Shown piece by piece: positions 4,832 through 59,490 of a stretch of DNA of 64,000 nucleotides (the first letter of the stretch is position 1; every line of letters begins with the position of its first letter). The translations under genes and the position numbers were made by a program. The DNA lies in NCBI GenBank assembly GCA_008632985.1, contig QPGO01000001.1, positions 302,600 through 366,599 of the forward strand. The letters run 5' to 3'. The notes beneath the pieces were generated by a model, which saw only the letters and a list, made by a program, of their open reading frames with translations, was not told the DNA's origin and did no database searches. The stretch is from Psammoneis japonica. Lineage: Eukaryota.

Positions 4832-7137
4832 TTCAACAATGTAAGAACGTGGTGGAAATACAGCGCACAAGTGATGCACTTGACCGTCATAAAAGAAGCT
4901 GCAGTCAGACATAACCAGAGAATGAGTAGGCATCATACCTCAGTGTTTGTCATACTTTTAGATAACGCATAACTTAATGTGATGGTAAAACCAAGAATCG
5001 GCATGAATCTGCGCGCTGTTCTGACCTCCGGGATCTATGTGAGCATGCGGCAATCCTTGTCCTTTTGATTGGTGCAGCCGATGCCTTTGTCTGGAAATCG
5101 TTTTGTGCAGACGACATTTTTTGTGGAAGTTCTTGGCCTCGTGCTGGTGTTCCTTGCAGATTTCGCATGCGGATTTGCAGTCGTGGTGCTTAACGGGATT
5201 ATTTTCTCTTTCCAGCTTCCATGCTGCTTCAAAAAATCACCCTCTTCTGCAACACATGCAGCTCTCTCTGCGGTGGCAGTCTTGGCTTGGGAATGGCCGC
5301 AATCCTTCTCTGGGCTTAGTTGGAAAACAGACAACTTGTCAATGGAGCTGCAGCATGAATTGAAGGCATCTTGTGCAGTGTCATGCACCAGCTGATGCTG
5401 CGGGGGTGACCACACCAACCAGGTTTTGAGTGTGCTGGTGAGCATGATCTTCCAACTCTCTCATTTTGGGTGAGTCCTTGCCATCTAGAAACTCAGCATG
5501 AGTGCCCAAATGTGATGCCTCTGAATGGCCTTGAGTTCCTGGAACCATTCTTCCAATGTGTGGTGTTTTTGGTGCAGGTCACAACCACGTGAGCTTTGTG
5601 TGTCCCTCCTTGAGCAAGTGTTCCCCTCCTCACAGAGGAGGTCATCATCTGGGTGTGCAACTGCCATCAACACAGAATGCTTTTTGATGCCCTTGGCAGT
5701 CAGGAGTGCGTTTTGCCTTTGATTTTGTCATTCATCTTTTTTGCTTTTGTTGTCATGAATGATGGCCTTAAATTTGATGCAATCTGTGCAGAGACAAGAG
5801 CAAAGCCTCACTTTCAACTCATTTGCCACCACTTGTTTCTTTTTAGAGATCATCATGTTGCTTTTCATCTCATTCACCTTGTCACCCCCAGTGTTGTTCA
5901 TGGCCAAACAGTTGACACTGTTCACTGCAAAGCTGAGAGCACCGCTTGCTGACCACATTTTTCTTGAATCTTGTCAGCTCCAGTGCAACCTGCACTGAGT
6001 GCTGTGGGTGGTGGCTTGCTTGCCACATGGCCCCATCATCACAGTGAGCAAACATGTGGTTGCTTTTGAGTGAGGGAAAAAAGCAGCCAATCATGCGTGT
6101 GGCACAGAGGAACTTGATGGACAGACTTCTTGGGCCAGTTGTTTGCCTGGTCTGGAAGCTTTGGCAAATCTTCATGATTTGGGTGGCTGTTGATCATGGT
6201 GTGCTGGGAACAAGGCACGGCACCTCACAGAGAGTTGTGACAATGTGGTCTGTGTGGCAACTTTGTGCAAAATGATCTTGCTCACTTTGGCTCTCACTGT
6301 TTTTAGCTTGCTGCCATCTCCCATTTTCTTTCAGACCAACGGATTCCCAAAATGTTTTGTTCATGTGCCAAGAGTCACCTCACATTGGCTTTGGGATTTC
6401 TCACTTGCATGGTGCAAATGTCTCTGCCAACAACTCCAAAAATGCTCCAGCCACTCCACAGAACAAAACTTGGAAAATGCAAGAAACTGATGCTTTGGGA
6501 ACCTTGGCTTCACTGTTGCTGCCAGCAATCCCCTTCTTGGAGACTTCATTGGTGAAAAGGAAGTTTTCAACTGCTGGACAGCCAAGAAATCCAAGGCTCC
6601 TGCACCTTGACCATCCGGGAATGGAGGCCGTGGAGAGATGTTGCTTCTTGCTTGAGGCTGGTGGGAAAAACAACAGAGCTCTGTCGCTGACATTAAAGCC
6701 GCTGATGTTGGCAGATGCCCCATCACACCAACCATCCAAGAAGGCACCAAAACAGGTCCTGTTGAGTCCCAAAAGGAGAAAAAGTGGAAGCATCTCAAGC
6801 CATGCCTTCAGCAGCATTGTCATCATTTCATGCCAGCAGCAGTGTTTTTGCATGATGGAGGACCAGCTGGCAAAGAAGAGGCCCAAGCATCCCCAAGGCT
6901 GATTGCAGCATGACTTTTCTGCAAACTGCAAAAACCTCATTTGGGAGCGCCGCGCACAAGCTCGTCAATGCAAGGATGGAAGCTGCAGCTGTGAGGACAG
7001 CTCACCTTGGCCTCAGAGGCCCCCACTGTCTCTCTGTCAGCATCAACCCAAGATGTGATGACTGATTGCACATGTGGGGATGCATTGCTGTCACCTGGTG
7101 GCAAGGTGCCATCTGCACACCAAGTGTTCAATCATGT

Positions 7138-7414
7138 CAACAGGATTTGAACAGGATTTAGGTGCGCGCGACATGTCGCGCGCTGTCCAGTTTGCCGCGC
7201 ACAGTTTTGTGTGCTTCAGTTCCGCGCGTTCGCGCACGGTGCAGTTTGCTTTCGAGCCACAAGGCTCACAAGAACAATGACAGTAGCCCGATTGTGCCGA
7301 CTTTGCACGTCTTTCGGCTCCTGCAACTGTCTCTGAGCGGAGACTCATCTGCCATTTAGACAGCAGCAAGGAGTTGTTGTTTGAATTCTTGCCATTTGCC
7401 TTCAATTTCTGTCA
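7138..7414 (+). repeat. 5' LTR (about 277 bp)
   Basis: 7138-7321 aligns with 13956-14124; ends CTGTCA, the inverted repeat of the 3' LTR start TGACAG. Confidence 0.8.
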
Positions 7415-7432
7415 GATTAACAGTCTTGCTCA
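7415..7432 (+). promoter_or_regulatory. Putative primer-binding site
   Basis: GATTAACAGTCTTGCTCA abuts the inferred LTR end; reverse complement contains CTGTTAA, a tRNA-Asn(GUU) anticodon loop. Confidence 0.45.
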
Positions 7433-8336
7433 TTGTCAACCCATTGAGCAACCGCCATCGTCGTCGTTGATTTACCGACGATGACACTTCAATTCTGCAT
7501 GGATCTCCGCATGTGTTCTATGCACATCGGCAAGTCTGCGCGCATTCAATGCCAGGCATCGGCAGGAAGTTAACGTCACCGTCAAATCTCCTCACCGCTG
7601 GACATCTGGATTGATTGTGCTGCCTCTTGTCGCTGAAGACATGCATTCAACGGTCACATCCAAGTCTGTCCTTGATCCTCATCCCTTGACATGCCCATTC
7701 AACGGTCAACGGTCAAGAACCCTGCACATTCAAGGATCTTCGTCGCTGAAGACACACACACATCCACATCTTCACGGCCAAGAACTTGCACCCACTCTTT
7801 GGACTGCGGCTTTGCTGCCACTCTACAAGCACACCGAGTCCATTGCACCTGATCCACCCCAGACTGCTGGTGCTCTGCAGTTCCACTGGGTCCACGAGGA
7901 CGACTGTGAGAGCAAGCAGCCGTGATTGCAGCCTACGTTGGGGCGAGGGTGTTTTTTCCCGCGTTTGTTCGTTCGTCCACAGCGCCTGACGCCTGCATCA
8001 ACTGGCCAGCCTGATCGGGAAATCCAACCGACATAAAACAAGAACGGTTTGGGGGTCTTGTCCACCTCCAGTCAGCTCACCTGCAGGGGTTTGCAACCCG
8101 CTGCTGCGCTCGCAAGCAACCCAAAGCGCCACTGGCTGCGGGTTCAGACCTGCCGGCACAACTCTGCGGACCGGATGGGAAGTTTAGCACTTGACAACAA
8201 ACGGGACAGCACAGCCCGGCAACTTCTGATTTTAAGGCAGTTCAAGATTTCAAGTCAAGTCCATTCTCACCCAAGTTTCAAGTCTGCCTTCGCGTCCCAA
8301 CAAGAGTCGCTTGTCCTGACACCACTTTTGTCTGCC

Positions 8337-11300
8337 ATGGTTCTCACTCGTCAGCAACAAACCGATGGTTTCGAGCACGTTGTTGGAACCGTGCTTGCCC
8401 AAGGTGCTGGGAGCCCTCTTCGTTTGGCTTTGACCCATGACGGCACGGACTTGCATCAAGAACTGTTCACGTTCACACCGTCCCAAATCGACTCGCTTGA
8501 GTGCGACAACGGCACTGATGTGATCCCTTTGCCCCACGGTTGTAAGAACATGTTAGCAGCTCTAGTTGGTCTGCACATTGTCAAAGCACATGAAGGTCTT
8601 GACGTTGCCAATGACTCCTCGTTGTTCACGCATGAGGAGTTCCTTGCCCGCCGCCTCAGCCCCGACTGCATGTCTTCTGTGTCCGTCGGCAGCTTGCCCC
8701 TCGCACCTCTGCATGTCACCAACCCGACCAAGGCACGCGACCCGGTGTTGGACTTCAAGCAAGGCATCAAGCGTGACCCCACCACTTTCACGGCTCTCAA
8801 ATCCGACAAGCAGTGGCACACTTGGCACACCTCACTTGTGGCACAAGCCCGTGCCCAAGACGTCAAGTGCATTCTAGACTCGTCGTACAAACCGACCAGC
8901 CCCGAAGACAAACTGCTCTTTGCTGAACAGCAAAAGCACAAGTTCGCTGTCTTTGAATGCATCCTTCTCACCGACAAGGGCAAGGCTCTCATTCGCGAAA
9001 ATGTGGGGTCTTCTGACGCCCAGACCGTCTGCCGCGCCTTGTCCGAGCATGCGCTCGCCTCCACCCGCGCTTCCATCGAGTCCTCCACCTTGCTCATGCA
9101 CCTTGCCACCGCACGTCTTGGTGATGGCACTTAAAAAGGTCCGACCCACGGGTTCATCCTTCATTGGCAAGATCAGCTGCGCAAGCATGGGGCACTCATC
9201 CCGGCCAGTGACCACTTCTCTGAAGGGCAGAAGCGTGTCATGCTCGAGAATGCCGCACATCCTGTCGAGGAACTCCGTGCCGTCAAGAACCAAGCTGATC
9301 AGCATCGCACGCAGAGTGGCAAGAGCCTCACATGCGATCAACATTGTGGCTTGCTCCTCTCCGCGGCGGCTCAATGCGACAGCATGTTTCAACCCAAGAC
9401 GACACCTCGAGCTCCCCGACGTGCCACACACGCACACGACGTCTGCTCCGAGGAACCATCCGATGATGTGTTCCATGACATCGACAGCGACATTGACGTC
9501 CTTCAGGCCAACGCTGCCTGCACCCGTGGTCCCAGCCTCACCGGTGACCAGTGGAAACGTCTCCCTCCCGACCACCAACAGATTTGGGATTCGTTGCCCC
9601 ATTCCTCCAAGGCAATCATCCTTGAGCATTCTCGTCCGCCTCCCCGCCACCCGCGAGCCAGCAACTGCCATGAGTCCGTTGCGGTCAACCTTCATGACCA
9701 ACGACTTGGGAGTGACGGTGATGTCAACTTGTCCAACACGACTCCTGCTGACTCTGGTGACCCTGCTCCAAATGTGGATGCCACTTCAGATGATCCCATT
9801 CTGGCACACCTCACCAAGCGCAAGCCACCACCACCCGGTGATCTGCAACGCCTGTTGTCTCCTAACCAACCCCCCAATGCTGGTCGACCGGGCCCATCCG
9901 CCGCTCCCTCTACCTCGCCTGCTCCTGCAGATGACACAGAACTTGGCGGCCGCACTCACCGCCGCGTTGACAACCACAATGTCATTTGCTCTGCCTCCGC
10001 TCATCGCTCCACACGCACTGGTGCTCTGGTCAATCGTGGAGCCAATGGCGGCATTGCTGGCGACGACGTTCACGTCATTGCATGCACCTCTTGCCAAGTC
10101 GACGTTCAGGGCATTGACGACCATCAATTGGTGGACATCCCCATTGTCGCCACTGGTGCCGTCATTGAGACACAGCGTGGTCCCATCATCGCCATCCTCC
10201 ATCAGTGCGCATGCACGGGAAAGGGCAAGACCATTCATTCCTGCGGCCAGCTCGAATGGCACAAACATGATGTCAACGATCGCTCTGTCAAGGTGCCCAA
10301 CGGCTTGCAACGTGTCGCCACCCCTGATGGCTGTGTCATCCCAATTGACATCAAGGGCGGCCTGCCTCATGTTGCCATGCGTCCCTGCACTGACGCCGAA
10401 TGGGACACCCTGCCCCATGTCATCCTTGCCAGTGATGACACATGGGATCCTTCCATCCTTGATCACTCTGTCACTGATGATGACCAGCGGTGCGACGCGA
10501 TCTCTGACCTGCAGGACGATCCCACTGCCAACCCATTTGATGAATGCGGCAACTGCCGTCACCGTGTCGTTGTCAACAAGGCCATCATGTCCGCCTCCTT
10601 GTCTGCCGATCACGCATCCATCCTCGATGACCACCTCATTCCGCATGACGACGTGTTCTGCGAGTGTCATCTGCATGCGATTGACCCCAAGGACGACGAC
10701 GTTCCGCCCCCGGAGTGCACTGTGCAGCCCAAGGACCCCCCCTGCGAGTCTCTTCGGCCTTGCTTTGGTTTCCAACCTGCCGATGCGGTTCGTCGTACTT
10801 TCGACTGCACCGCGCAGTGCGCCCGCATGCCCGCTGGTGCACACCTTCAGAAGGCCTGCAAATCGCCCAACCCCGCCCTCAATGTGCACCGCCGCAACGA
10901 GCCCATCGCCACTGACACCATTTGTGCCGACACCCCGGCCATCGACTCTGGTTGCACCAGCGCCCAACTGTTTGTTGGCACCGAGTCTACTGTCACTGAC
11001 GTCTGCGGCACCAAAACGGACAAAGAGTTTGTCAACACACTCGAGGATCAGATCCGTGAGCGTGGTGCTCCATCCAAACTCATCAGCGACCATGCTCAAG
11101 TTGAGATCAGCAACAAGGTGCTTGGGATCCTACGAGCCCTCTTCATCTCCCCAGCTGGCAAAGTGAGCCTCACCAGCAACACCAAAACTTTGCCGAACAT
11201 CGATGCCAGACCGTGAAGTGCGTGGCGAACACTGTCATGGATCGTTTTGGTTCGCCTGCCCACACATGGCTGCTGGCACTCATGCACATGTGCTTCATGC

Positions 11301-14059
11301 TCAACCATGCAGCGTCCCCACGTCTCCACTGGCGCACGCCCCTCGAGACTCTCACTGGCTCCACCCCGGACATCAGCCCATTGCTTCGCTTTCACTGGTG
11401 GGAACCCGTGCACTTCCACCTTGATGACTCCGATTGGCCGTCCGAATCCCGTGAGTTGCGTGGACGCTTTGTTGGCATTGCTGAGCACGTCGGCCACCAG
11501 ATGACCTTCAAGATTCTCTCTGACGAGACTCAGAAGATCCTCTGCCGGTCCAACGTACGATCCGCTGCCACCGATCCTGCAGTTCGAAACCTGCGTCTTG
11601 ATCCTCCTGATGGGGAGCCACCTGAACCCATCATCAAATCTCACCATGACGACAACCCCGTCGATTCACCCGATGGGGAGATCAGGACACCCAAGATGCC
11701 AGTTTTCGATCCGCAAGACATCATCGGATGCACCTTCCTCATGCAGCCACAAGAGGACGGACAACGCCACAGAGCTCGCATCGTCAAGGCCATTGAAGAC
11801 CACAAATGGAAAGTGAGCAGCAATCCCGAGCTCACCAAGTTCGTCTGCTCTGTCAACAACGACGAATGCGAGGAAGTCCTGGCCTGCAACGACATCATGA
11901 ATCACATTGAACAAGAAGACGAAGACACTGCTGTTTGGAAATTTCGACGCATTGTGTCACACGAAGGACCTCTGAAGCCTCATGACCCAACCTGGAAAGG
12001 CTCAAGCTGCGACATTGTGCTTGAATGGGAAAGTGGGGAGATCACGTCCGAGCCTCTTGCCATCATCGCCAAGGACGACCCTGTCACCTGCGCCATCCAT
12101 GCACGAGAGAACGGACTTCTTGACACTGATGGCTGGAAGCGGTTCTGCACCATCGCGAGGCGCCAGAAGAAGCCATTCCGCATGGCCAACCAAGCCAAGC
12201 TTTGCTCCTTCCGCACTGCACCTTGCTGCAAGTGCGGATGCGAAGTTCCCCGGAACTGCAAACATGCCATGTCACTAGACGAACGCAACGGCAACCGCAA
12301 ATGGGGAGACGCAACTAATCTCGAGATGGACCAACTCAAGGAATGCGAAGTCTTCCATGACTGCGGGCCCTCCGAGTCTTCCACTCCTCCTGCGGGACAC
12401 AAGAAGATCCAAGTGCACCCAGCGTACGACGTGAAACACGATGGTTGCCACAAGGCACGACTTGCAGCCGATGGGCACCTCACGGACGTACCCATTGACA
12501 GTGTCTGCTCCGGAGCAGTCTCCCTCCGTGGCCTTCGGCTGATGATTTTCCTGGCCGAACTCAACGAGTTGGAGACATGGGCCACCGACATTGGCAATGC
12601 CTGCCTTGAAGCCACCACCAAGGAGAAGCTCTACATTGCAGCCGGACCCGAATTTGGCAAACTCGAAGGCCACATCCTTGTCATCCACAAGGCCCTGTGT
12701 GGACTGCGCAGCTCCGGCCTCCGCTGGCACGAGCGCTTCGCCGACTGCCTGCGAGCTGAAGGTTTCTTCCCCTGCCGCGCCGAACCCGACATTTGGATGC
12801 GCAGGAACGGCGACCACTACGAATGCATTGCCGTTTGTGTGGATGACCTTGCCATTGCCATGAAGGACCCTCAATCTTTCGTCGACACTCTCACGGAAAA
12901 GCACAAGTTCAAGCTCAAGGGTGTGGGACCGATTGAGTTCCATCTGGGCTGCGACTTTTCCCGGGATCCTGACGGCACCTTGTGCCTGTCTCCGTGCAAG
13001 TACATTGAATGCATGGTCGACAGCCACACACGACTTTTTGGGGAGAAACCCACCACCAACGCCCTGTCACCTCTGGAGAAGGGTGACCACCCCGAACTGG
13101 ACACTTCCGAACTGCTGGGGCCCAATGGCATTCAACAGTTCCAGTCTCTTGTTGGTTCACTCCAATGGGCAGTGTCCCTTGGTCGACTTGACATCACTGC
13201 GGCCGTCATGTCACTCTCTAGCTTCCGAGCTGCACCCCGTCAAGGCCACTTGGATCGTGCCAAACGCGTCTGTGGGTGCCTCTCCAAGATGCGACACGGC
13301 ACTCTCCGCGTTCGCACGGAAGAGCCCGACTGTTCGGATCTCCCTGCTCCGGCCTGTGAATGGATGCATTCCATGTGTGGCGAAGCAGAAGAGATGATCC
13401 CGAAGGACGCTCCACCGCCCCTTGGCAAGTTCGTCACTGCCACCCACTGCGTCGATGCAAACTTGTGCCATTGCATGCTCACCGGACGCTCTGTCATGGG
13501 AATGCTCCACTTCCTCAACAAATTCCTGGCTGATTGGCTCTCTAAGAAGCAAGCCACCATGGAGACTGTGACCTGCGGGTCTGAATTTGTTGCCGCAAGG
13601 ACTTGTGTCGAGCAGATTGTCGACCTGCACATCACCCTGCGCTGCCTCGGCGTCCCGATCCGTGACATTGGTTGCATGTTCGGTGACAACAAGTCAGTTG
13701 TAGACAGTGCCACCATCCCGCACTCCAAGTTACACAAGCGACACACCGCACTGTTGTTCCACCGTGTGCGCGAGGCTGTTGCCTCTGGTTGCCTTGAGCT
13801 CCACTTCATCGAAGGCTCCCGCAACCCTGCTGACATTCTCAGCAAGCATTGGGGTTGCTCCCAAGTCTGGGACCTTCTCCGCCCCCTCATGTTCTGGAAC
13901 TTCATTCCATCTAAAGTCGAGTCTGTTTCTGTGACTCCTCAAGCAAACTGGGGAGTGACAGGATTTGAGCAGGATTCAGGTGCGCGCTGTTTAGTTCACC
14001 GCGCACAGTTTTGTGTGCTTTGGTTCTGTGCGTTCGCGCGCGATGTAGTTTGCTTTTGA
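8337..14059 (+). pseudogene. Copia gag-pol polyprotein pseudogene
   Basis: ATG 8337; stop 9132-9134 within DGT*KG; protease LVNRGANG (D->N); integrase TDT...SDHA; frameshift near 11150; RT KARL..DG, DIGNACL, KALCGL, CVDD (12836-12847); RNase H DNKS, NPADILSK. Confidence 0.95.
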
Positions 14060-14124
14060 GCCACAAGGCTCACAAGAATGACAACAGTGGCCCGATTGTG
14101 CCGACTTGCACGTCTTTCGGCTCC
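13956..14124 (+). repeat. 3' LTR, truncated
   Basis: Starts TGACAG after the PPT; similarity to the 5' LTR stops at CGGCTCC (14124). Confidence 0.85.
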
Positions 14125-14708
14125 GGCTTTGCGGCACATGCATGACTTCTTGAAACTCTGCTGCCAGCACTCATGTTGAGCAGTTCATTTTGCCAGAGAC
14201 ACAGGCAAAAAACAACAAGATGCCAACAAGGCATTCCTCACATCTTCAACTCTTCGTCTCAGCGTGCCTCTTGTCTTCCAGTGTTAGCTACAGCACTTCA
14301 GGTTATGACGCCGATTCTTGGACTTGGACGACAGGACGGGAAAAGTTTCGATTTTGCGAAAAAATTGCGGTTGCGATGTGACGGCTTTCAAAAAAAATAT
14401 ACATTAAACCCATGCGTAAATCTTATAATGTACGGCAACGCCTAGCTCTAACACTATCACTCATACAGTTAACAAAGTCGTGCAGGAATCACATGTATGA
14501 GGAAGTTCATATACTCTCTAGATTTATATAAGCATGGATTACGGAAGACTAACGCCGCAAACGCCAATTCGAAATTTTGAAAGAATCAAGCGAGCAAAGC
14601 AAGCCATCACTTTTCACCTGCTCGTTTCACCTTTTATTAGAGTACCGCACAGTTGGTGGACATCAAATTGACGTACGGGCCTCTGTTAAATGGTGGAAAA
14701 ACGGCATT

Positions 14709-16494: not shown

Positions 16495-16829
16495 GACGAT
16501 GATGGAAAAATGAAGCGTTGTTGTTAACACACCATTTCTTCGAACTTTTTGCTTGATGTGTTACCTGTAGATAGCAGAGAGATGCGAGCACCGACACTGT
16601 ACTGTAGAAGAGGATTTCCATCGCATCGATCATCACATCGGCCGCCCGTCAAATAAGCCCGCCAAAAACCCAGTCGCACTGTCCGATCTTCGCCAGGCAT
16701 CCGTGGTGAGACGCAGTGAATCGGCGCCGACATGCGACGACGCGAAGGCTTACGACGTAAGACTGCACCCCAATGTGAAAAACAGGGAGAGATCACATTC
16801 AATTACGCGCATGCCAACGTTTTAAACCG

Positions 16830-19800
16830 AGCAATCCACAAGTCAGCAGTCATTGCAAGAGCCTCCTCTGCGCAGCGCGCTTGGCAAATGCTGTGTGGCT
16901 CATTTTCAAATGGCTGTTCTTTTGTGCAGTGGTGCCACTGCAATTCACTCTCAAACTGCTGACAATGCAGTTGCTGCTCATGTGCTTCTTTCAACTTCTG
17001 GACTGTTGACAACTCCAGATTGCAGATCTTGGTGCAGTTTGCCATGTGGTCTCCCTCGTCATCCATTTCATTGAGTTCTTTTCTGGACATTTCCGCTGTT
17101 TGTGCTGCGGTTGTCCTGCACAAATCTTCCCATTGGTTGAGTCATTCACTCACTGCATCTTGCTTGATCACTGTCCCACTGCCACACTGCGCTGCAGTCA
17201 GGAGGCAGACTGTGTGCCTGCTGACACTTTGAGAACCAAGAATCAAGCCCTCAACCTGTGGGGCACAATGTGGTCTTGTGGTGGCCAAGAAGATGATGGC
17301 AGAATGGGGCCATTGTGTGCTCTTCATTCATGAATTTTCTTGTTGCACCTCACAGCCAGCGCAGGCTGCCACCCCCTCTGATCCCCCTGACAGGGGGAAG
17401 CTGTGTGGGGTCTGTGCACACTTCCCGTGCAAAAAGATTGTGCACTTCACGTGTGCAGACAGGTTGTGCATGCTTCATGCTCGCTTGCAAAGCAATTTCA
17501 AAACTGGTTTGTTGCTTGACAAATGCAGTTGCTTTGTGGTTTGCTGACAAACTGCATTTTGTAAAACACTCAGTCAGAAAATGTTTGCAAAGAGCTGCAC
17601 ATGCTGCATTGGGTCACCTCACCACCAGCCATTCTGAGCATGCAACCCATCTCATTTCATTTTCATCTGCAGGGGTTGCAAGCACATCTTCTGCTGCACC
17701 TCTGGAAGTTCTGGAAGCAAGCCACCCATCAGCGTTGGTCCACAATTCTGGACAAAGTCTTTTCACAACATGCCTGTTTCCTCCAAAAACTGTTGGCATC
17801 AAATGTGGGTGTGGTGTGGTGCTCAGAAACACTTTTGTCTTTGACATGGTCTCTCACCTTGATGATGTCTCTGCCAGCAGCCTTTTTGTCATTGGCCACC
17901 CACTTGCCCAGATTGATCTGCCTCTGAACCTTTGCCCACCTGCACACACTGTGGGGCTGCTTTGTGGCATTGCAAGTTGCTTGGCCTCCCCTTTGTGTTG
18001 TCTTGTGATCTGAACACAGTGGTTTTTCCTTCATCATTGACTGAAATTTTTGACAAGCAAATTGGATTAAAAAACAACCCCAAGTTTTAAAAATGTTTTG
18101 GTTGTTGATGACCATGGTTGCACACAACAGAAATGCAAACATTTCTTTTTTCTGGCAGCCTTGAAAGCCCTCTGTTTGTCCTGTTGCAAACCACATGGTT
18201 TTGGAATTGCTGCCCTTCTTCACTCACTGAACAAACCAATTTTCAAATCAATCAGCACACTGCACAGCCAACAAATTGTCGCTGACTTGCATCATGATTT
18301 GTGCCTCAATTTTGTCTGCAATGCATGATGAAGAGTTGCCATTGCCATGGCTGGCACAACAGAATCCAGTGTGTTGATGCAACTCAAAATGAGCTGGGCA
18401 TGTTGTTGTCCCAATCCACTGATGCTTCTGCACCACCAATGGGCTGATGACTGATGCACATCATCAGCAACCAGTCAGTTGAGCACAGCAGCCACCTCCC
18501 AGGTGCTGCAGGTGCCAGCCACCCCCCTTCTGGCTCTGCTGCTTGCACCTCAGGTGACACCATCATTGCATCTGGCACCAGACTCCCCATGTTGGGTGGC
18601 AGCAGTGGCATCTCAGGTGCCTCTCCTGGTGGACCAAGCCTTGTGACATGTTGGGCAAGCCAAGTGCATTTGCTGACACTGACACACACAGAGGAAATGG
18701 GGGCCCAGGAAACCAACAAGACTGATGAAAATGACGGATCTCTCTCAAGAGAGGACAACAACAAAGGTTTTGTTTTGAAGTGTTTCTTGGGATCAACTCA
18801 TCCCAGCAGATGTTGGGTTCTGATGATGAAGAGGGTTTGGCAGCACCAGAGCTTTCTGCTCCAAAGGAGCGTGCCGCCACATCATCATCATTGGGCTGCA
18901 TGTTTGCATCTGGAGGGAAAAGCATCTCTTGAGCTGATCACAATCTGTGGCAAGTCCAGTGCTGCTCACAACACAAGGTGCAAAGAGACCAGTGACAAGC
19001 AAAGCAAGCAAACACACACCACATTTTTTCACTTTTTGAACTTTTCTTTCATGACTGGTCATCTTGTCTTTCCAGCATCTTCAAACTCATCAAACAGATG
19101 ACTGGCATCCTCATCATCTGCCAAAAGAGTTGTCATCTGCCAAAAGAGGGGGTCACCACAAGATGGCAATTTTTGTGCTTTCCCTGCACTGCACTGCAGT
19201 CCATCAGAAGAACTGGGCCTCTTCAGGATTGCTGGAAGTGGGGTCTGACACTTCTTCCTCTGTGATGCTGTTCTTGAACTGAGAAAGGGAGTTTTTGAGA
19301 CTTGCAAGAAAAGCACCCCACCCATCCACCATTGATCATGTGCCTCCATTCCTCACCTGTGGCTTGTCAGTGTGCAAAAGCTCCTCTTCATCGTTCCATT
19401 GGCAACACACCAGAAATGCCTTCAATGGGTTTGAAGCTTTGTCTTTTTCAGGCTGCAGACATGAAAGTGGGGTGATTTTGGACACATCTTTGTGACAGAA
19501 GCAAAATGCCACAAGGTGGCACGCAATCTCACCCTGTTGACATCAGACCTTGCCAATTTGAGGGGGTGAAATTCGTGCAGGAATTTTTTGCAGGGTGGAC
19601 AAAAAATTGCAGTGCAAGTCACTTCACGCAGATGACCAAGTGGGTTTGTGGCTGCCTCTCTCTCTGGGCATTGCTCTGACAACTGCTGAACATGTTAACA
19701 TCCAATGCAAAAATGCCAAACGCAAAAATGTCAAGTGAAATTTTTGAAACACCCCCAAATGGAAATGTCAGTGGCAAAAATCAAGTGCAGATCTTTTGTT

Positions 19801-32507: not shown

Positions 32508-32519
32508 GATTGGAAAGGG

Positions 32520-33759: not shown

Positions 33760-34035
33760 ATGACAACCACATGGGAGCAGCTCTGGTCAATTCAGAGCAG
33801 CCTGCAGATTCCTTTGGCAATCTTGTCAATCATTCTTGGATTGGCAATGACCACTGCAGTTGTTCTTCAAGAACAGAGGAAAAGCCAGAAGCAAACACTC
33901 ATGTGCCATGCTGGGTCTTGCATTTTGGTTGTCTGAGTCAGCTCCTTGGGGCATGGCACTTGGGCTTGGGGAGCTGCCTTTCATGTGGAATGATTTGGAC
34001 ACATGTGCACAGCTCAGGACTTTCTCTTTGTCTTG
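33760..34035 (+). pseudogene. Decayed 5' fragment of the GPCR-like gene at 36744
   Basis: MTTTWEQL..LQIPLAILSII vs MPPTLEQL..LQIPSAILSIV; DNA alignable with an internal deletion. Confidence 0.85.
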
Positions 34036-45240: not shown

Positions 45241-45632
45241 GATGTAAACACCACCTCCTGTTTTTTAGGGCAACGCTCGCGCACTCTTATTTTGCTGCAG
45301 TGCGATGCAGTCCGCAGTCCGCAGTGCAAAATAAACTTACTGTAATGTGCCTCTTGAGACGCACGAAACCTTTTCAATTGCGTGTCACAGCAGTGACGTC
45401 TCGGCGCACACGTCTTAGAGCCAATTGGAGATTGAGTTTATGACAACAACACGTAAAAAGCTAAGGCGTGGGTGTGTCTGCTGTATCCGCGGATCAAATC
45501 AATCGTGGGCGAGCAGAAATGCAAATAAAGAGAAATCCGTGATGACTTTGCGTGAAGCACAACTCAAGTGTAGCACAACTCAAGTGTAGCCTTTAAGACC
45601 GGCATTGTCGGTATATCGTGCCGAGATTCTTC

Positions 45633-47864: not shown

Positions 47865-48349
47865 TGTTTCAAGTATGTCACTTTTCATACCACCGGCTCT
47901 TATCGCACGTGCCGAACCATTCATTGCAGCAAAATCAGACTCTAGAACGATCCTGTGCAATGCAAAAAGGCTTTCAATGCGGTGAACTGCTTTTTCCTGC
48001 TAGGTGGTCACGAGTTTCCAAGTGCATGGAGCACCACACGCATTCCTTGACGCATCTTGCGGCGCTGTTGTATGAGAGAGTAGGACGCCAGAGTCAGTGT
48101 TCCGCCTACTGTAAACAACAAGGCCAGGAAAGAAGCAATTGAAGCTTTCGAAATTATTGAAAACATGCACACTATATTTTTAATAGCCGGACTTGCTTTC
48201 GTTTTTTCTCTTCGATGCATTTGGAAGGGGGGTGGAAATGGGGTTCCCAAATGTGTAAATCTTGTTGACGCAGGGTCTAATCTCTTGCAACTGACCATGT
48301 TTTTCTGCCGAGAGCACAGGCAGTTTTCCACCTCGTCTTCAATGTTAAT

Positions 48350-51300
48350 GGGAGTGTTTCTTTCCTCTCCAGCACAAAATGCATGTGCTGGTGTTCTCCA
48401 AAAAGGTCCTGCAAAAACAAGGTTGTGGTCCAACACAATGGTTGGCAAAAGAAAATGTGAGATCTGATGCTTTCACTGTGCTGCACTGGGGGGGGGGGGG
48501 GGGGGGTGACAGAGAATCCATGAGAGTTCAAGAGCACATGTGTGAAGGGAGAGCAATTGGAAAGAGGCAATGACAAGTCAACCAGACAAGCCACCTTCTT
48601 CCAAGAGCATTTTGAAGGACAATGATGATGATGTCACGAGCAAGAGAAACACTCAAACAAGTGCCTTCAAATGACCATCCTTTGCTACAGTCAAAAAACT
48701 CTCTTTTTCTTGGAGCTTTGACAGGAGCAAAGAGCGGCCAAGAAGAAGAGAAGATGTGTTCCAGCTCCAGGTGGGACCTCGCACTGCAGAGCTGTGACAT
48801 CAAGAGCACTTTGGATCGAGCTGCATGCCACGCACGCGCACACATTTGCATGTGATCTTCTACGAAATTGTTTCATGTTCCCTGTTTTGCAAAGCCAAAG
48901 GCTTTCTATTTTCATTGTTTTCAAAAATGAGAATGGGCCAGGTGCACTCTCAAACATCTGCAGAACACACCAGGGCAAACTGCTGATCATGCACTTTTCA
49001 AGTGTGAAGGAGGAGACATGTTTGCAAAATTGCCTCCATTTTTGTTGACAATCATTCACATGTTCATTGCTCAATGATTTCACTGTGGAGCTCGCATGTG
49101 GAACTCCACAGCCCAAATGTCACATCGAGTCCCACCCAGGGCTGCAACGCATCAGAGTGCTGAGGGGGTCTCCCGAGGAGCGGGGGGAGTGGCAGCTGGT
49201 TGGTTGACTCAAACCTCTCACTGGAGTGAGAGGTGCCATGGGCTGGACTCAACACCACAACAACACTGCTTGCAAGCTTGAGGCTGTTTGCTCAGATGGT
49301 GTGGCGATGCCCAGAGATGGCAGAACCTGGCCTTCTGATGACAAGAACGAAGAACACCGCCGCAGTGGCCTGTTTCCAAAAATGAAACGTGTGCTTTCAT
49401 GACAACTGATCTCTCTTGCTCAAGCTGAAGCTGTGCAAATCACTGCAGAAGAATCCAACAAAGAGCGCAGAGACCCCACGAGGTTGAACCTGAGTTGTCA
49501 AACAAAGCCGTGTGACGGCCAGAAGATTGGCTTTCCTGCACGCACGCGCGCCACGCTGCTGGGAGCTGTCGCGCTCGCGCTCGCTCACACGACAAAAGAA
49601 GAGAAACGGCAACACAAGAATCAGCAGAATTCTGCCCAAGTCGCATTCTTCTGCTGAAAGTGGTGGTGCATGGAGGCACAAAAATTGGCAAAGCGACTCA
49701 GCTCCACCTCTGAAAGGTGCCCTGGTGAGCACACTGCAACATGTGACCCCAATGGATTGTTGTTGTGTACAATGTTCCACTCAAATTTTTATTTTGCCTG
49801 TCATTTTCCAGTGTGGTGAATTTCGTTGACTGTTGAAGCTTGCAGTGGCATTTCCAGGCCCATGTGTTCTAAATGACAGATGTCCTTTGACACACTCCTT
49901 GTTCACATGGGGAAATCAGATCCTGGAACTTTCTGCATCTAGCCAGGTCTAGAGAGGGAATGGACAGAACAATGTGGAGCCGGTTGAAGAAAAGTGATGA
50001 AAAAATGTTTGGCAAGTGTGCTGTTGTGTGTCAACTGCAGAGTCAGTCAGCTGTGGGTGTGTGCTTTTTCTGCATTTCTGTGAGCAATGAACCGGCAGAC
50101 AATGCCCTTGGACAGATCATGGAGTGTTGTTGTTCTTTAGAGTGTTTGCTCTAGAGTGGAGAGCCATGACCAGACAGCTGTGTCAGAAGCACTGATCGTC
50201 TGGGCGTCGCGCATGTGCGTTTTGAACGTGTTGCTGCTCTCTCTTTCCTCCTCCTCCTTTTCCTCTTCTTTTTTTTTCATAAACTTGGAGCTGCCTGTGT
50301 GTCCGGACACATGCCAAATTTCAAGCTCACAGTGCATGCCACTGGATCTTTTGCTTGAGAGCTCGTTGTCTTGCACGCAGCTTTTGTGCCAACAGAGTCG
50401 TGTGAAATTGCACGACGAGCAAAAAACAATCGACAAGAACCAATCAGAAGCCACAAAGTTGAAATGTTGTGCTCTCTTTGCTGGCAAAGACGAGCCAACA
50501 CTCTTCACGCAGTTGAAAATGTGGGGTGCCGGGGATGGAAAATTGGAGCAGTCTGTTCAAGGTTGGCGGCACGAGCAGCAACCATCTGGTCACAAGTGGT
50601 GTCATCTCCAGCAGCACACCACAGTCTCCAGTGGCATCCCATCTTGTTGAGCAGTGCAATCTGGCCAGTCTCTCCAGTTGCAGAGCATTGTCTGTTGAGC
50701 ACTGCAGTCCAGTCTCTCCAGCAGCACATCACATTGCATCAAGCAATGAACATCTGGTCTCTGCTGGTGGCTGGCATTGCACAGCATGGTGTTGCATTGC
50801 ATTGAGTGGTGCAGTCTGTGGCCAATCTTGAGTGGCAACATGTCGAGTGGCAAACATCCAGTCTTGAGCAGCATTTCCAGCAGCAATTTTGCTGCCGGCA
50901 CAAGATGAGTCCCCAACATGCAATCTTCCAATGGCTGCTCTTAAGTGTGTTGTGATTGATTTGGAAGCATGGTTTGTCTTTCGATGGTGGCGCCAAATCA
51001 AACTCTGCCGTCAAACAATTCAATGGGCACTCAATGCCACCAGTTCACCAATGGCCAACTCCTCATGCACTGGAGCTGCCACTGCCAACAGCCTGTCACA
51101 ACAAACAAGTGACTTGGAGCTTCACACTGGCATTGTTCCAAAATGCAAACTCCAGCGTTCTTGCAATGCATGATCTGAGAGTGAAAACAGGGGTGAGCAA
51201 AAGGTGCAGTGGAATGCAAAGCAACAGCAAAACCAGACTTGAGTTCACATGCCACAGATTTGCAGGCAGCTTTCAATTTTTCTGACAAAATTGGTTGTGG

Positions 51301-52765
51301 TTTCACATTGTTTTAGCATTCATCCCACACCACCCCTCACAATGTCATTTTGTGCTGCACAAGCTGAAAATGGAAAACGGATGTGAAGTGAGCAAAACGC
51401 AAGGCAGGGTGCAAAGTGCCAGCAAAACAAATCACATGGGTTTACATGCCATGACTTTGCAGTCAGCATTCGACTTTCTGACTGACTGATTGTGGTTTCA
51501 CATTGGTCTTGTTCCCATGACACTGCTTCCAATGCTCCAGCCCTTGCATGAGAAACACAGAATTGCGTGCAGGCATGCTTGTTTCGTGTTTTTGTCAACA
51601 TCCAAAAAGGAAAAAATGACAAAATGACTTAACACAGCCAACATCACAGCCACACATGGAGAAGCAAATCAAGCGTTTGTCAGAGTTCAGAAAGAACAAT
51701 GAACACACAAGTTGGTGCATGATGCACAAAACGACAAGCTGCCGTTGTCAAACGCCAGTTGACAACACCACACAACAATTGACCGAGGGAGGGATGACAT
51801 GGAACATCACAAAACATCACTGAATTGAAAGTGATCAATGTTGTTTCATGCCACATGAGCTGAGAACAGAAAATGGATGTGAGCAAAACGCAAGGCAGGA
51901 TGAAAGTGCCAGCAAAGCAAATCACAAGTTTGCATGCCATGACTTTGCAGTCAGCACTCAACTTTCTGACTGACTGATTGTGGTTTCACATTGGTCTTGT
52001 TCCCATGACACTGCTTCCAATGCTCCAGCCCTTGCATGAGAAACACAGAATTGCGTGCAGGCATGCTTGTTTCGTGTTTTTGTCAACATCCAAAAAGGAA
52101 AAAATGACAAAATGACTTAACACAGCCAACATCACAGCCACACATGGAGAAGCAAATCAAGCGTTTGTCAGAGTTCAGAAAGAACAATGAACACACAAGT
52201 TGGTGCATGATGCACAAAACGACAAGCTGCCGTTGTCAAACGCCAGTTGACAACACCACACAACAATTGACCGAGGGAGGGATGACATGGAACATCACAA
52301 AACATCACTGAATTGAAAGTGATCAATGTTGTTTCATGCCACATGAGCTGAGAACAGAAAATGGATGTGAGCAAAACGCAAGGCAGGATGAAAGTGCCAG
52401 CAAAGCAAATCACAAGTTTGCATGCCATGACTTTGCAGTCAGCACTCAACTTTCTGACTGACTGATTGTGGTTTCACATTGGTCTTGTTCCCATGACACT
52501 GCTTCCAATGCTCCAATCTTTGCATGAGAAACACAGAATTGCACACAGGCACACTTGTTTCGTGTTTTCCTCAACATCCAAAAAAGAGAAAACAACGAAA
52601 TGACACTTGGCACAGCCAACATCACAGCCACACATGGAGAAGCAAATCAAGAGCCTTTGTTGTCAGAGTTTAGAAAGAACAATGAACACACCAATTGGTG
52701 CGCAATGCAATGACAAGCTGCCATTGTCAAGTGCCAGTTGACAACACCGCACAACAATTGACCAG
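48350..52765. other. TpA-depleted block E
   Basis: TpA rare, TG/CA-rich; local CpG-rich patch 49530-49600. Confidence 0.8.
51190..52764. repeat. 488-bp tandem repeat, about three copies plus a diverged partial copy
   Basis: Identical ORFs at 51680-51961 and 52168-52449; GTGAGCAAAACGCAAGGCAG near 51388, 51879, 52367. Confidence 0.95.
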
Positions 52766-52988
52766 CGAGTAGATAGACTGTACAGTAAAAAACACAGCAC
52801 ACCAAACCATTTCGAAACCGCGCCACACACTCAATCAGCAGGGGAGCCCGCTACCGGTATGCGGCAGCGGCGGCAGGCGGCAGCGCAATTGAGATAGTGG
52901 ATGAAAACAGCAAAAAACAAAAACAGCGAACACATCATCGCGCCGTTGCTGCTGCTGTTTCTACTTTTGAGATTGCTTTCTACTTACA

Positions 52989-53170: not shown

Positions 53171-53207
<37 letters not shown>

Positions 53208-56574: not shown

Positions 56575-57324
56575 ATGCTCTTGATTGCTGCAGCTTCTCT
56601 TGTTGCTTTTGGTGGCCTGTCGCATTTTGGGCTTGTGGGATTGGCCCAAGTTTGTGGTTCGCGATTTCTTGCTCAAAAAAAACACGTCTCGCACAGAACT
56701 TATGCGATTGTCGCAACGTCCACCAACAAGAATTTTGGCAGAATCATTCCACGATTGTTGGAAACGACCAAGCAGGGTGTTCTTGATGCGGATCCAAAGT
56801 CTTCAGAGGTTTTGTTAAAAGAGTCGGCAGAAATGTATGGTTCACCAAAAGGTGCGGATGCGCTATCGGTTGGATTGTATTTTGATGATCCAAGTCAAAC
56901 GGAGAACCCCAAATGGGCGATTGGATGGTGTGTAGCAACAGCATCCTTTGACAAGGCAAAAGAACTTGCCAAGACAGTATCAACAAAGGTGAAGCTGGAA
57001 CAAGGCGAATGTATTAGAGCGGTTCGGGTTGGCGGACCGAATCCAGTCTTGACGGCTCGAATCCCGTGGCGTCATGCCTTGACTCCCATGATTGCACCCA
57101 TGCTGCACTGGAATCGTGGGTTTGATGCTTATGAAAAGGGAGGCTTTACAACAGAGGGAGATCCTGCCAAGGGCTCTACTGGGGCGCACTCGGGAGGAGC
57201 GGTGGCGTGTGAAGTCTATGTGACAGGGCCTGGCTGTTCCATGGAGTACATTGATTATGTAATTCTCATGGGCGACACCAAGAACGTTTGGAACGATACA
57301 TTTCCTTCGGTATCCACCCAATGA
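56575..57324 (+). CDS. TEX264/GyrI-like domain protein
   Basis: N-terminal anchor; VGLYFDDP...WAIG motif; intact 249-aa ORF. Confidence 0.65.
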   Translation: MLLIAAASLVAFGGLSHFGLVGLAQVCGSRFLAQKKHVSHRTYAIVATSTNKNFGRIIPRLLETTKQGVLDADPKSSEVLLKESAEMYGSPKGADALSVGLYFDDPSQTENPKWAIGWCVATASFDKAKELAKTVSTKVKLEQGECIRAVRVGGPNPVLTARIPWRHALTPMIAPMLHWNRGFDAYEKGGFTTEGDPAKGSTGAHSGGAVACEVYVTGPGCSMEYIDYVILMGDTKNVWNDTFPSVSTQ

Positions 57325-57809
57325 AATGTGAAAAAGCCTGTAGTATGAGGTGTCGACTTTGAGGCTTGTGTGTGTGTTTCTTTTTTAATGAAATATTGTT
57401 CTAATTTCGTATGTACAACAACGCATGACAGAACCAAGCTATGACACGTACACGTCTATCCTATTGTTGTAAATAGTATTCTGAAATCCACTTAGCGTTA
57501 TTTTGTCGGCTGTAGCTAAAAGTATGTTGTCCCCCCAGTTTTCTAACGCTGTCTCTGGCGCGAGAAGCCACTCCTGCACACGTCTTCTACCAGCAGAGCA
57601 TGCTGAAACCCAGTCGAGGCGAGTCGACAAGGTTGATCTCGGCACTGCATTCACGAGGTGCTCTGTTTCGTAATTTAAAGTGCCATGTTTTGCGCGAGCA
57701 AAAGGTGACATCCAGGCGCAAAAATGGAAATTCCTGTCCTGCCCTGCCTGAATCTGTTCTTTCGACAAAGCTCAACTTGATTTGAGACCGTGGCTGTCAG
57801 ATGCTCTAT

Positions 57810-59490
57810 GTGGCAACTTGCACCTGCACCATGGAAGTGCATCATGAATCAAAGGACGCACAAGATTTTTGCCAATCTTGCAGTCTCACCCATGCTCTGA
57901 CCTCAGTTCAAGTTTCGCACAATGAAGCACACTAAAAACAGATGGGTTTGTGAGTGAGACAATGTGCAAATGGGTTTGTTTGTTTGGCAGGACTTGGCCC
58001 AAGTGTCTCAAAATTTTTACAAAGCTTTGGTGCTGAACAAGCTTTTCTCCTGAAACAGCTGGTGAACATGTGGTGTTGATGACCAACAGACAAATGACTG
58101 GGGCCAATGAAATCATCTTCACAATTTGGCGCCAACTTGTCACATCACATTTGCTGTCAGGCAGAGCATGAAGCAACTGTGAACAATTGTTGTGATGGCA
58201 CTTGTTGCATTGTCGGCAGCCAGGTGCAAATCAAACTGGGTGCAGCAGCCACCAGGACAACTTTGTCAAAACAAAAAAGCAGCGCAACTTGTGTCAACCT
58301 TTCACATGTGGAAGAACAGTTTTGAGAAATGCGCAGCTCTTTCCTCCATTGGCAAATGATCTGCACATGTTTCTGCAGTGTTGCTGCATTGTGGTCTGTG
58401 CTGATGTGATCAATGTCGCGCACTTTGCACCCAGATGTGCCACATTTTTGACAACAACAAACCCAAGTTGCTGCTCAACAAGTGAGCCACAGTGTTTGTG
58501 CTGCACTGTGCTTCGCTCACTCCATGGAACATTGCCATGATCACACATGCTGAGAACACACACCCTCTGCCATCAAAAATTTGCTGCAGCGTGGAAGCCA
58601 TCGTTGGATGCACTCCAGCTCCAGGTGGGACTTTGCGCTGCTGAGCCACAACATCAGAGTTTTTTTGTCATCATGCATCACATGTCATGCGCGCACACAT
58701 TTTTTCATGTGATCTCCTGCAAAGTTGTTTCATGTTCCCTGTTTGGCAAAGCCAAAGGCTTTTTGTCACATGTGGGTTGGGGTGGCAACCTGGAAATGAT
58801 GTGCTCCAAGGATGAGAGAGAGAAGACACAATGTCAAAACTGCCTTTTTCTCTGCTGGCAACAATCTGAGCATTCATTTCCCAGCGATTTTGCTGCAGAG
58901 CTTGCGCACAAAATTCCGTGTGCATGTGTCACACTCGCTCATGACAACTTCATCATCATTGTGTGCATGATGCGATGTTTGCATGGCATGTTGTGCAGTG
59001 TGATGCAGCTGTGGTTGGGCACAACAAAACCCTCACATTGACAAGGACAAAGCCGCACCCGAGAGTCGACACAACAAAGAGTTGCCTGCAAAAACAGAGA
59101 GTGTTCCCGGTCTCAGGGGGAAAAAAACATCAAAAATGACTGATTGCCAGGGAAATGATGGGATTTTTGCCTCAACAGACATGAAAAAGGGACATCCTGG
59201 AATCAATCAGCACCGGCAACAATTGTTTCTTCCCTGGAATGTGAGCGGGGGGAAATCAGTGATTCCCGGAATTTTCGCGTGCAGCTGACGTCGAGTTGAG
59301 TTGAAGTTCAACATGCATGAAGGTTTTCTCTGTTCTGTGTGGATGATTCTTCGGGACGCCGAAGAAGTTTGGTGTGTCACAACCTCAATGATGACATGGC
59401 CAATGGCCAGCAATCTTCCTTGTGCATCTCTCCGTTTGGTTTCTAAGCTTCCTGGTTCAGTCGCAAGACAAGACGCATTGCCTCTGAAAT
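57810..59490. other. TpA-depleted block F
   Basis: TpA rare; shares a roughly 150-bp segment with block E. Confidence 0.8.

Follow-up and report, generated by a model that had tools for sequence, protein, structure and literature searches.

TpA-void blocks in a probable diatom genome point to region-restricted transition mutation of transposon and gene-relic DNA

Six blocks of DNA that almost lack the dinucleotide TpA (TA) lie among ordinary genes in a 64,000-nucleotide stretch of a eukaryotic genome, positions 302,600–366,599 of contig QPGO01000001.1; the whole stretch is called the window below. In these blocks the chromosomal DNA was mutated after insertion or duplication, TA becoming CA or TG and CG becoming CA or TG. 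This follows from the differences between the long terminal repeats (LTRs) of one Copia retrotransposon and between tandem repeat copies, the loss of Tyr codons, the changes in gene relics relative to their parent genes and the polymorphism among Copia copies, taken together. The loss of TpA is separable from the loss of CpG. We consider it probable that silent DNA was struck in place by a fast, TpA-specific process together with a slower transition process at CpG, both restricted to certain regions.

TpA and CpG depletion in six bounded blocks

A first-pass annotation of the window, made from the sequence alone, had described six TpA-void blocks separated by gene islands. Segmentation with a two-state Poisson hidden Markov model (HMM) on the TA counts per 100 bp recovered all six, with a total length of 26.4 kb, and the earlier coordinates proved to be accurate. 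The void segments of the HMM are 5201–14200, 16901–22300, 32701–36300, 42901–45200, 48301–52700 and 57701–59400. The observed/expected ratio (o/e) of TA in blocks 1–6 is 0.095, 0.025, 0.057, 0.021, 0.059 and 0.025, respectively. In the seven long segments of normal DNA that separate and flank the blocks it is 0.50–0.63; with a CpG o/e of 1.00, the islands are of ordinary composition, as had been proposed. No TA is present in 199 of the 640 100-bp intervals, compared to a Poisson expectation of 56; the distribution is bimodal, not the unimodal one that had been named beforehand as a refuting outcome. The longest run of 100-bp intervals with no more than one TA comprises 42 intervals, whereas the permutation maximum is 19 (n = 2000).

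CpG is depleted as well. Its o/e is 0.10–0.39 in five blocks and 1.00 in normal DNA, a loss that the first-pass annotation had understated. In the old void DNA (19.3 kb) the o/e values of TA, CG, CA and TG are 0.04, 0.20, 1.84 and 1.82, respectively; the corresponding values in normal DNA (36.1 kb) are 0.55, 1.00, 1.19 and 1.17. Because both TA and CG become CA or TG, CpA and TpG are roughly doubled and the G+C content is nearly unchanged (0.484 in the old void DNA, 0.465 in normal DNA). ApA is not depleted (o/e 1.22 in void and 1.15 in normal DNA), and the sequence of the void blocks is complex, not a simple repeat. The CpG sites that survive in the old void blocks are enriched in GCGC, which accounts for 34 of 230 survivors but for 4% of the CpG in normal DNA; at 49000–50500, block 5 retains a CpG o/e of 0.36–0.59 despite its TA void. 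Two further stretches, a short HMM blip at 29101–29400 (1 TA in 300 bp) and positions 1–500 (TA o/e 0.27), have normal CpG and may reflect chance or coding constraint.

The contrast in Tyr usage between blocks and islands, also part of the earlier description, was reproduced: Tyr makes up 0–0.41% of the residues in the six void open reading frames (ORFs) checked and 2.3–3.7% in the nine normal ORFs checked. The void DNA is packed with long open frames of this kind, in which Cys and His are raised. They are long and Tyr-free because changes at TpA create no stop codon and destroy TAA and TAG.

Contigs assembled independently from a public run match the void DNA to within 0–1 differences, at a single-copy depth of ~56–60, although the run is one of the same sample and may be the source of the window. 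Void domains are probably modified DNA, and base-calling errors at modified bases, or some other artefact of sequencing or assembly, might be thought to produce such a pattern. However, the contigs agree at even depth (with the reservation on their origin just given), the blocks have evolutionary structure in their LTRs, paralogues and Tyr codons, and the pattern recurs in one unrelated metagenome contig (L076, see below). We assign practically no probability to an artefact.

Edges were read from the exact TA positions and lie at ~5037, 14284, 16824, 22355, 36300, 42830, 45244, 48347, 52769, 57808 and 59443. The coordinates of the first-pass annotation agree with them to ~50 bp, except at the left of block 3, where the edge is a gradual shoulder that spans 32363–32700. 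That annotation had called the transitions sharp and 100–400 bp wide; the sharpness stands, whereas the width is mostly under 100–200 bp. As it had also noted, the footprint stops short of intact genes, ending ~250–500 bp before the flanking long ORFs. At three boundaries the depletion of CpG begins up to ~500 bp further into the block than that of TA, and the void of TpA is accompanied by CpG at normal density at 5037–5200, 44871–45172 and 58885–59443. In the gene islands, over 14553–63738, nearly all long ORFs are on the plus strand; the void blocks occupy almost all the space between ORFs and leave ~250–500 bp of normal DNA beside each of them.

Direction of the mutations and two separable processes

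The voids had been ascribed to a mutator. This view, as opposed to an intrinsic composition of the DNA, is upheld by a direction of change that is polarised in three independent ways: by LTR and tandem repeat copies, by Tyr codons and by relics compared to their parents. Block 1 contains one Ty1/Copia LTR retrotransposon (Table 1), whose two LTRs are 81% identical at the nucleotide level, yet 99.3% identical in the purine/pyrimidine alphabet. Of their 20 mismatches, 19 are transitions and 16 change one pyrimidine–purine step (YpR, where Y is a pyrimidine and R a purine) into another, including 4 double differences of CA versus TG. No TA is conserved between the LTRs, and 12 CpG are. LTRs are identical at integration, and the CA-versus-TG doubles are expected if an ancestral TA then went opposite ways in the two. 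The copies of one 488-bp tandem repeat in block 5 behave alike. Three comparisons gave transitions at 18 of 18, 26 of 30 and 44 of 48 mismatches; the CA-versus-TG doubles number 5, 4 and 9, respectively. Two pairs of control duplicates in normal DNA have 135 transitions among 253 mismatches and 108 among 255 (53% and 42%).

The second line of evidence comes from the Copia polymerase, which was aligned with 20 homologues of 53–64% identity. In the 31 columns with conserved Tyr, the protein of the window has Tyr 3 times, Cys 20 times and His 5 times; the residue classes other than Tyr are kept at 64–100%. Tyr amounts to 0.41% of the Copia protein, compared to 4.3% of the homologues. Against the single homologue P0115, the 67 aligned Tyr correspond to 37 Cys, 18 His and 3 Tyr, and the five control loci compared with P0115 keep Tyr at 42–49 of 59–67 positions, or at 39 of 39.

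The third line is given by three decayed copies of DNA that is intact elsewhere in the window, namely those of one seven-transmembrane (7TM) receptor gene, one FG-GAP repeat gene and the copy at 32469–32937. Parental TA has become TG or CA at 7 of 9, 6 of 8 and 6 of 8 sites, respectively (19 of 25 in total), and parental CG at 15 of 16, 16 of 19 and 10 of 12 sites (41 of 47 in total). In addition, at the listed places (run X1), other genomic copies of the Copia element differ from that of the window by 314 transitions and 87 transversions, and swaps of TG and CA are polymorphic among the copies, e.g. at 11298–11299, 11411–11412 and 12506–12507.

These observations bear on two other explanations. 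The first holds that the composition is intrinsic, the blocks being foreign or viral DNA or DNA under selection to avoid TA and CG, for instance to escape a nuclease. Avoidance of dinucleotides is indeed known in viruses and phages. However, conserved Tyr codons were destroyed and host-gene copies changed relative to their parents, and the old blocks lack coding potential (88 ORFs with two weak Pfam matches below the cut-offs). Related elements point the same way: among 80 Copia loci of this kind from metagenomes, 79 show a TA o/e of 0.48–1.01, so the TpA void is not intrinsic to the element. An intrinsic composition is thus extremely unlikely in our judgement. The sole TpA-void locus of the 80, L076, is an independent metagenome contig of 2766 bp with only 3 TA (o/e 0.02) and a CpG o/e of 0.44; it carries a different Copia, of ~61% protein identity. 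Its 35 aligned Tyr have become His 15 times and Cys 8 times and have stayed Tyr once; this bias of His over Cys is opposite to that of the Copia in the window.

The second explanation is RNA editing, in which an ADAR- or ADAT-like enzyme would convert A to I at UpA in retrotransposon transcripts and reverse transcription would fix the changes. Two points are consistent with this. On the Copia sense strand, codons that once were Tyr read TG more often than CA (Cys 37, His 18), and a 5′ U is favoured by ADARs, according to one preprint (bioRxiv 10.64898/2026.01.13.699255). Nevertheless, the LTRs, identical at integration, differ at former TA sites and show both CA and TG outcomes, and the tandem repeat and the host-gene copies decay likewise, without signs of retrotransposition. 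ADARs prefer a 3′ G; in the window it is TA with a 3′ purine that survives best, which is the opposite. The excess of His over Cys in L076 also speaks against editing of the sense transcript. RNA editing is largely refuted for the window, and we consider it very unlikely.

Two processes have to be distinguished, since the Copia element has lost TpA and kept CpG, three edges are void of TpA only, and some loci are poor in CpG with ordinary TA. The last are found among the related metagenome Copia loci, where CpG o/e is 0.17–0.25 and TA o/e 0.48–0.66 at L022, L057, L004, L060, L062, L075 and others (0.17 and 0.48 at L022). Because many loci are CpG-poor with ordinary TA, CpG decay of related Copia elements is common and TpA erasure rare (1 of 80). 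The TpA process is faster than CpG decay, reaches slightly further and is rarer across organisms. Positions 101–800 of L022 were considered as a second TA-void stretch and rejected; the CA o/e of 3.13 indicates that this is probably a simple repeat. Among the 120 Copia homologues listed, P0195, from a 46.8-kb contig, is the only one that is clearly low in Tyr (1.7%, compared to a median of 4.1%; Cys 2.2%); it may represent a copy, in another assembly, that has been mutated in part.

The separation of the two losses also matters for a third explanation, error-prone repair synthesis in methylated or heterochromatic domains, for instance polymerase-eta-like misincorporation opposite T at TA, with the mutations as a by-product of repair. 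The WA hotspot of polymerase eta is known from immunoglobulin hypermutation, and the losses of TpA and CpG are co-located in the window. On the other hand, ApA is not depleted at the values given above, the changes are almost purely transitions, and the Copia element, having lost TpA with its CpG still present, indicates no dependence on prior CpG damage. We find repair synthesis an unlikely cause.

The TA sites that survive depend on context. In the old void DNA, RTAY survives once, YTAY and RTAR together 17 times and YTAR 34 times; the counts in normal DNA are 446, 767 and 214, respectively. Scaled by length, the log survival is about −5.5, −3.2 and −1.2, and the steps are additive. Tentatively, the A of each strand is struck independently and ~4–5 times more readily with a pyrimidine 3′ of it. 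A purine two bases upstream would explain the survival counts equally well, as the classes are palindromic and do not tell these possibilities apart. That the pattern arose because TA was formed anew from CA or TG was rejected, the precursor classes being about equally common. At the YTAY Tyr codons of the Copia in the window, TG is found 17 times and CA 2 times. A pure 3′-neighbour model of this TG/CA asymmetry fits the window and fails for L076, and we regard it as tentative; part of the asymmetry may be specific to the strand or the locus.

Contents of the blocks and neighbouring genes

The contents of the blocks and the intact parents of the decayed copies are listed in Table 1.

Table 1. 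Blocks, mobile element, decayed gene copies and their parents in the window
Feature	Coordinates	Strand	Evidence and remarks
Ty1/Copia LTR retrotransposon	7138..14127	+	RVT_2 E 7e-21, gag-pol homology, direct LTRs; relatives diatom CoDi-like
5′ LTR of Copia	7138..7324	+	blastn and purine/pyrimidine comparison with 3′ LTR
3′ LTR of Copia	13956..14127	+	preceded by purine tract GGGGAG
Block 1a	5037..7137	.	TpA- and CpG-depleted old void DNA; depth 59–73, single-copy
Block 1a remainder right of Copia	14128..14284	.	no TA in 14046–14285; only 3 CpG
Block 2	16824..22355	.	TA o/e 0.025, CpG o/e 0.105
Block 3	32701..36300	.	void; left shoulder from ~32363
Block 4	42830..45244	.	between two FG-GAP genes; CpG returns ~300 bp before TA at right edge
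Block 5	48347..52769	.	void DNA
Block 6	57808..59443	.	CpG returns ~500 bp before TA at right edge
Decayed copy of 7TM receptor gene, 5′ part	33662..34034	+	parent 36641–37042; scores 91/113 and 48/60, control maxima 46/64
Decayed copy of normal DNA 38439–38919	32469..32937	+	purine/pyrimidine score 93; blastn 78%/130 bp, E 2e-21; tblastn E 4e-9
Decayed copy of FG-GAP gene A, 5′ part	49223..49518	+	parent 40242–40547; score 129, control 64; blastn 72.8%/92 bp, E 1e-6
488-bp tandem repeat, ~2.8 copies	51340..52795	+	inside block 5
Intact 7TM receptor gene, parent of block 3 relic	36717..37688	+	7tm_1 E 3e-6, below Pfam cut-off; TA and CpG normal
Intact FG-GAP repeat gene A, parent of block 5 relic	40024..42489	+	domain search, tblastn; paralogue gene B at 45597–47861

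The Copia element is the youngest target within the window. It has RVT_2 in a gag-pol of Copia order between direct LTRs, as is characteristic of Copia, and by tblastn its gag-pol homology to proteins of 1618–1709 residues extends over 8913–13900 with one change of frame near 11147–11156. A target-site duplication was looked for and none was identified. The element as a whole has a TA o/e of 0.11, a CpG o/e of 0.83 and a G+C content of 0.56, and it is nested in older void DNA, which continues at 5037–7137 and 14128–14284. In contigs of the public run the summed depth of the Copia family is 5e4–1.7e5, compared to ~58 for single-copy DNA (~900–3000-fold), a value that indicates high repetition and not a copy number. 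A tblastn search with five full-length Copia proteins found no further Copia relics in the other blocks.

Since transitions keep the purine or pyrimidine class of a base, hidden homology was sought by recoding the window to purine/pyrimidine letters, followed by BLAST; a second setting used a word size of 20. Reversed sequence served as the control and scored at most 46 with one setting and 64 with the other. By these matches, blocks 3, 5 and 6 contain dead, incomplete copies of host genes; the corresponding intact genes are found at a distance of a few kb. One more piece of FG-GAP gene A, at 48615–48730 (parent 40041–40157), is borderline, with a score of 62 for a control maximum of 64. Part of block 6 (58606–59099) is homologous to part of block 5 (48752–49283), with purine/pyrimidine scores of 121 and 104. 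The same approach gave no homology for blocks 1a, 2 and 4 and no match on the reverse strand above the control.

Searches with proteins returned little from the void DNA. The 88 stop-to-stop ORFs of at least 90 residues in the void blocks outside Copia have no credible Pfam match; CENP-F_leu_zip and DHH were hit weakly, below the cut-offs, and are read as chance. None of the 9 ORFs of at least 90 residues in block 1a had a Pfam match, and the 23 ORFs of block 2 gave a single weak one below the cut-off. A 579-residue ORF had no usable match in the Atlas. With tblastn, 156 ORFs of normal DNA searched against the window gave only one match inside void DNA, so void DNA is nearly invisible to protein search.

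An association of the blocks with repeats had been expected at the outset. It is present for the Copia family, for 20342–22342 in block 2 and for the 488-bp array, but not for block 1a and most of block 2, which are single-copy at a likeness of at least 90%; along block 2 the depth is about that of a single copy at 16.3–20.3 kb and ~7–12 times higher at 20.3–22.3 kb. This mixed result is relevant to a homology-triggered process resembling the repeat-induced point mutation (RIP) of fungi, in which duplicates would be sensed and then mutated at TpA (and CpG) instead of CpA. Duplication, present or past, is evident for much of the void DNA from the high-copy Copia, the 488-bp array, the gene copies and the homology between blocks 5 and 6, and the DNMT4 enzymes of diatoms group with fungal RID (PMC9998398). 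Yet the genes from which the decayed copies derive remain untouched, as do two pairs of duplicates in normal DNA (1.3 kb, 77%; 0.8 kb, 65%), and single-copy DNA was mutated in blocks 1a and 2. In the chlorarachniophyte Bigelowiella natans, a rhizarian, the hypermutated viral insert is likewise single-copy (bioRxiv 10.64898/2026.01.13.699255). A trigger of this kind is improbable in our view.

The duplicates of 1.3 kb are located at 3560–4852 and 15210–16513, just left of block 1 and of block 2, respectively. They share 77% nucleotide identity, are both of normal composition and carry a glycosyltransferase family 90 domain at their 3′ end. Blocks 1a and 2, the void DNA next after the one and the other copy, showed no homology to each other in purine/pyrimidine BLAST. 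At 14840–15200, inside the ORF 14553–16139, one 90-bp unit is repeated four times at 97% identity in normal DNA; 2 of its 5 differences are transitions. One PRiA4_ORF3 domain is split over the ORFs 29671–30126 and 30116–30910, which are in different frames and cover profile positions 9–60 and 72–160; either a small intron or a frameshift could account for this.

A RelA/SpoT (ppGpp synthetase) gene, made up of two ORFs that overlap, occupies 54856–56144 on the minus strand. Plastid-bearing eukaryotes typically have genes of this kind, and the long uninterrupted ORFs of the window fit a diatom-like gene structure. The nearest named eukaryotic homologue of the RelA/SpoT protein is from Pseudo-nitzschia (42%) and the nearest named homologue of the Copia protein from Nitzschia inconspicua (54%); those of the FG-GAP protein are from Cyclostephanos, Cylindrotheca, Chaetoceros and a Bacillariaceae genome (33–38%). 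The nearest Atlas cluster of the FG-GAP protein is commonest in Bacillariophyta, with a score of only 0.82. No near-identical protein was returned by the searches with these three proteins, so the genome probably lacks a public annotation; by the same reasoning it is presumably not that of B. natans, whose proteome is public. Going by its nearest homologues, the host most likely belongs to the diatoms or to a lineage close to them.

Proposed mechanism and comparison with known systems

For the mutation of silent DNA in place, we propose the following course. Besides a high-copy Copia element and a tandem repeat, the blocks would contain partial duplicates of nearby host genes, now dead, and relics that have decayed beyond recognition. 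A fast process would convert T:A to C:G at TpA, nearly to completion, and whether TpG or CpA results on the plus strand would be set by which strand's adenine changed. From the LTR pair and the survival of TA, the TpA excess over background is roughly estimated at ~50–100-fold. A slower process would convert CpG to TpG or CpA, most simply by deamination of methylated cytosine. Our best guess for the agent of the fast process is an adenine deaminase acting on DNA, with a preference for an A after T and, in the window, before a pyrimidine; it may be directed to silenced chromatin, as has been proposed for B. natans. A methylated or heterochromatic state of the domains, as the first-pass annotation had proposed, is suggested only indirectly, by the loss of CpG, the usual footprint of 5-methylcytosine (5mC), which is nested inside the TpA-void domains.

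Several points weigh against this proposal. Targeting of the void domains through chromatin is something that we only infer. For blocks 1a, 2 and 4 (~10 kb), which could be traced to no source, the description as silent DNA of foreign or duplicate origin is extrapolated. The loss of CpG could come from the same enzyme instead of 5mC. The alignments of relics and parents were scored in a transition-friendly manner, so their transition and transversion counts are biased and are not independent evidence; the homology of the relics itself rests on blastn, tblastn and purine/pyrimidine BLAST. In L076 the YTAY Tyr codons have become TG 7 times and CA 10 times, and the 3′-pyrimidine model is not upheld there. 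Finally, the assignment to diatoms draws solely on the nearest named homologues, at 33–54% identity.

A wider proposal may be ventured, though we hold it with less than even confidence. Diatoms, and maybe much of the stramenopile–alveolate–rhizarian radiation, could possess a chromatin-guided adenine deaminase that acts on double-stranded DNA at 5′-T-A-Y-3′. It would be an irreversible genome defence that mirrors fungal RIP, triggered by silencing and not by foreignness or repetition; it would thus also finish off duplicated host genes and fill the intergenic space with Tyr-free DNA devoid of TAA and TAG. Given a second case, one that is saturated and comes from a probable diatom, TpA hypermutation would be a widespread genome defence of algae and more than a curiosity, and the enzyme could be found in diatoms, which have good genetic tools. 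The window further shows a long-term outcome, in which TA is erased completely and host pseudogenes are consumed along with transposons. If the proposal is true, a natural A:T-to-G:C editor of DNA would exist and be of interest to base editing; current adenine base editors are laboratory-evolved. For annotation, the long spurious Tyr-free ORFs mislead gene prediction, and ordinary similarity search misses the origin of void DNA, which the purine/pyrimidine-alphabet search recovered here.

In the RIP of ascomycete fungi, duplication triggers the change of C to T at CpA, so that TpA becomes overrepresented and G+C falls. The process in the window resembles RIP in being confined to transitions and to certain regions, in inactivating transposons and duplicates irreversibly, and in leaving a dinucleotide signature in sharply bounded compartments beside intact genes. 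Different from RIP, it runs in the opposite direction, destroying TpA (o/e 0.04) and enriching CpA and TpG, and it does not lower G+C (0.484 compared to 0.465). Also unlike RIP, parent copies are spared, and the mutated DNA includes single-copy sequence, namely block 1a and the larger part of block 2.

The CpG half has a counterpart in CpG decay driven by 5mC, with which it shares the change of CpG to TpG or CpA in transposon and relic DNA (41 of 47 parental CpG). Such decay explains this half only. Here it has advanced more slowly than the loss of TpA, and the DNA that it marks is nested within the TpA-void domains. According to PMC9998398, 5mC of transposons depends on DNMT5a in Phaeodactylum, and the function of the diatom DNMT4 that groups with fungal RID is not known. 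DNMT4 may serve as a lead for the CpG half only.

Deamination directed against mobile or viral nucleic acids is also the principle of restriction by APOBEC3, on complementary DNA, and by ADAR, on double-stranded RNA; ADAR in addition shares the 5′ U (bioRxiv 10.64898/2026.01.13.699255). These enzymes act on RNA or on pre-integration intermediates, whereas the process described here acted on chromosomal DNA after integration and on DNA that is not of retroelements.

The closest known system is that of B. natans, which Mettrop et al. (2026) studied in mutation-accumulation lines (bioRxiv 10.64898/2026.01.13.699255). Two integrated viral regions gained 231 single-nucleotide mutations, of which 230 were A>G or T>C and fell on TpA; the rate was ~1000 times the background, with the process active in some lineages only. 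The genome has 124 clusters that are TpA-poor and CpA+TpG-rich, and an ADAT2-like deaminase was proposed. Like in B. natans, TpA becomes TpG or CpA in the window through A:T-to-G:C transitions (Tyr codons 25 of 31, relic TA 19 of 25), discrete regions are affected with ordinary composition outside, and the footprint is poor in TpA and rich in CpA and TpG. The clusters of B. natans are enriched for reverse-transcriptase, transposase and unannotated ORFs. As for the origin of the targets, the window has one Copia, three host-gene relics and three blocks without an identified origin, and no viral gene was seen in it.

There are also differences from B. natans. It is a rhizarian, whereas the host here is probably a stramenopile, diatom-like by the names of its homologues only. 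The depletion of TA is deeper in the window, with an o/e of 0.02–0.06, compared to 0.45 for the giant-virus insert and a cluster cut-off of 0.43 in B. natans. The targets in the window include dead copies of host genes. The extended context, with RTAY lost first and YTAR last, is reported here as a difference from the B. natans account. The spectrum of B. natans is almost exclusively A:T to G:C and lacks a C-to-T component; here, the change of CpG to TpG or CpA is near saturation in five blocks and nested in the same domains, and CpG has 0 occurrences in the text of the preprint. This extra CpG component is probably a second, ordinary process. Diatoms are not mentioned in that text either, and searches at the level of titles and abstract openings, in a literature of limited coverage, came upon no publication that describes transposons void of TpA, or hypermutation at TpA, from diatoms. 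As far as our searches show, TpA-specific chromosomal hypermutation has been reported once before, in the 2026 preprint on B. natans, and the TpA half of the process in the window has the same signature.

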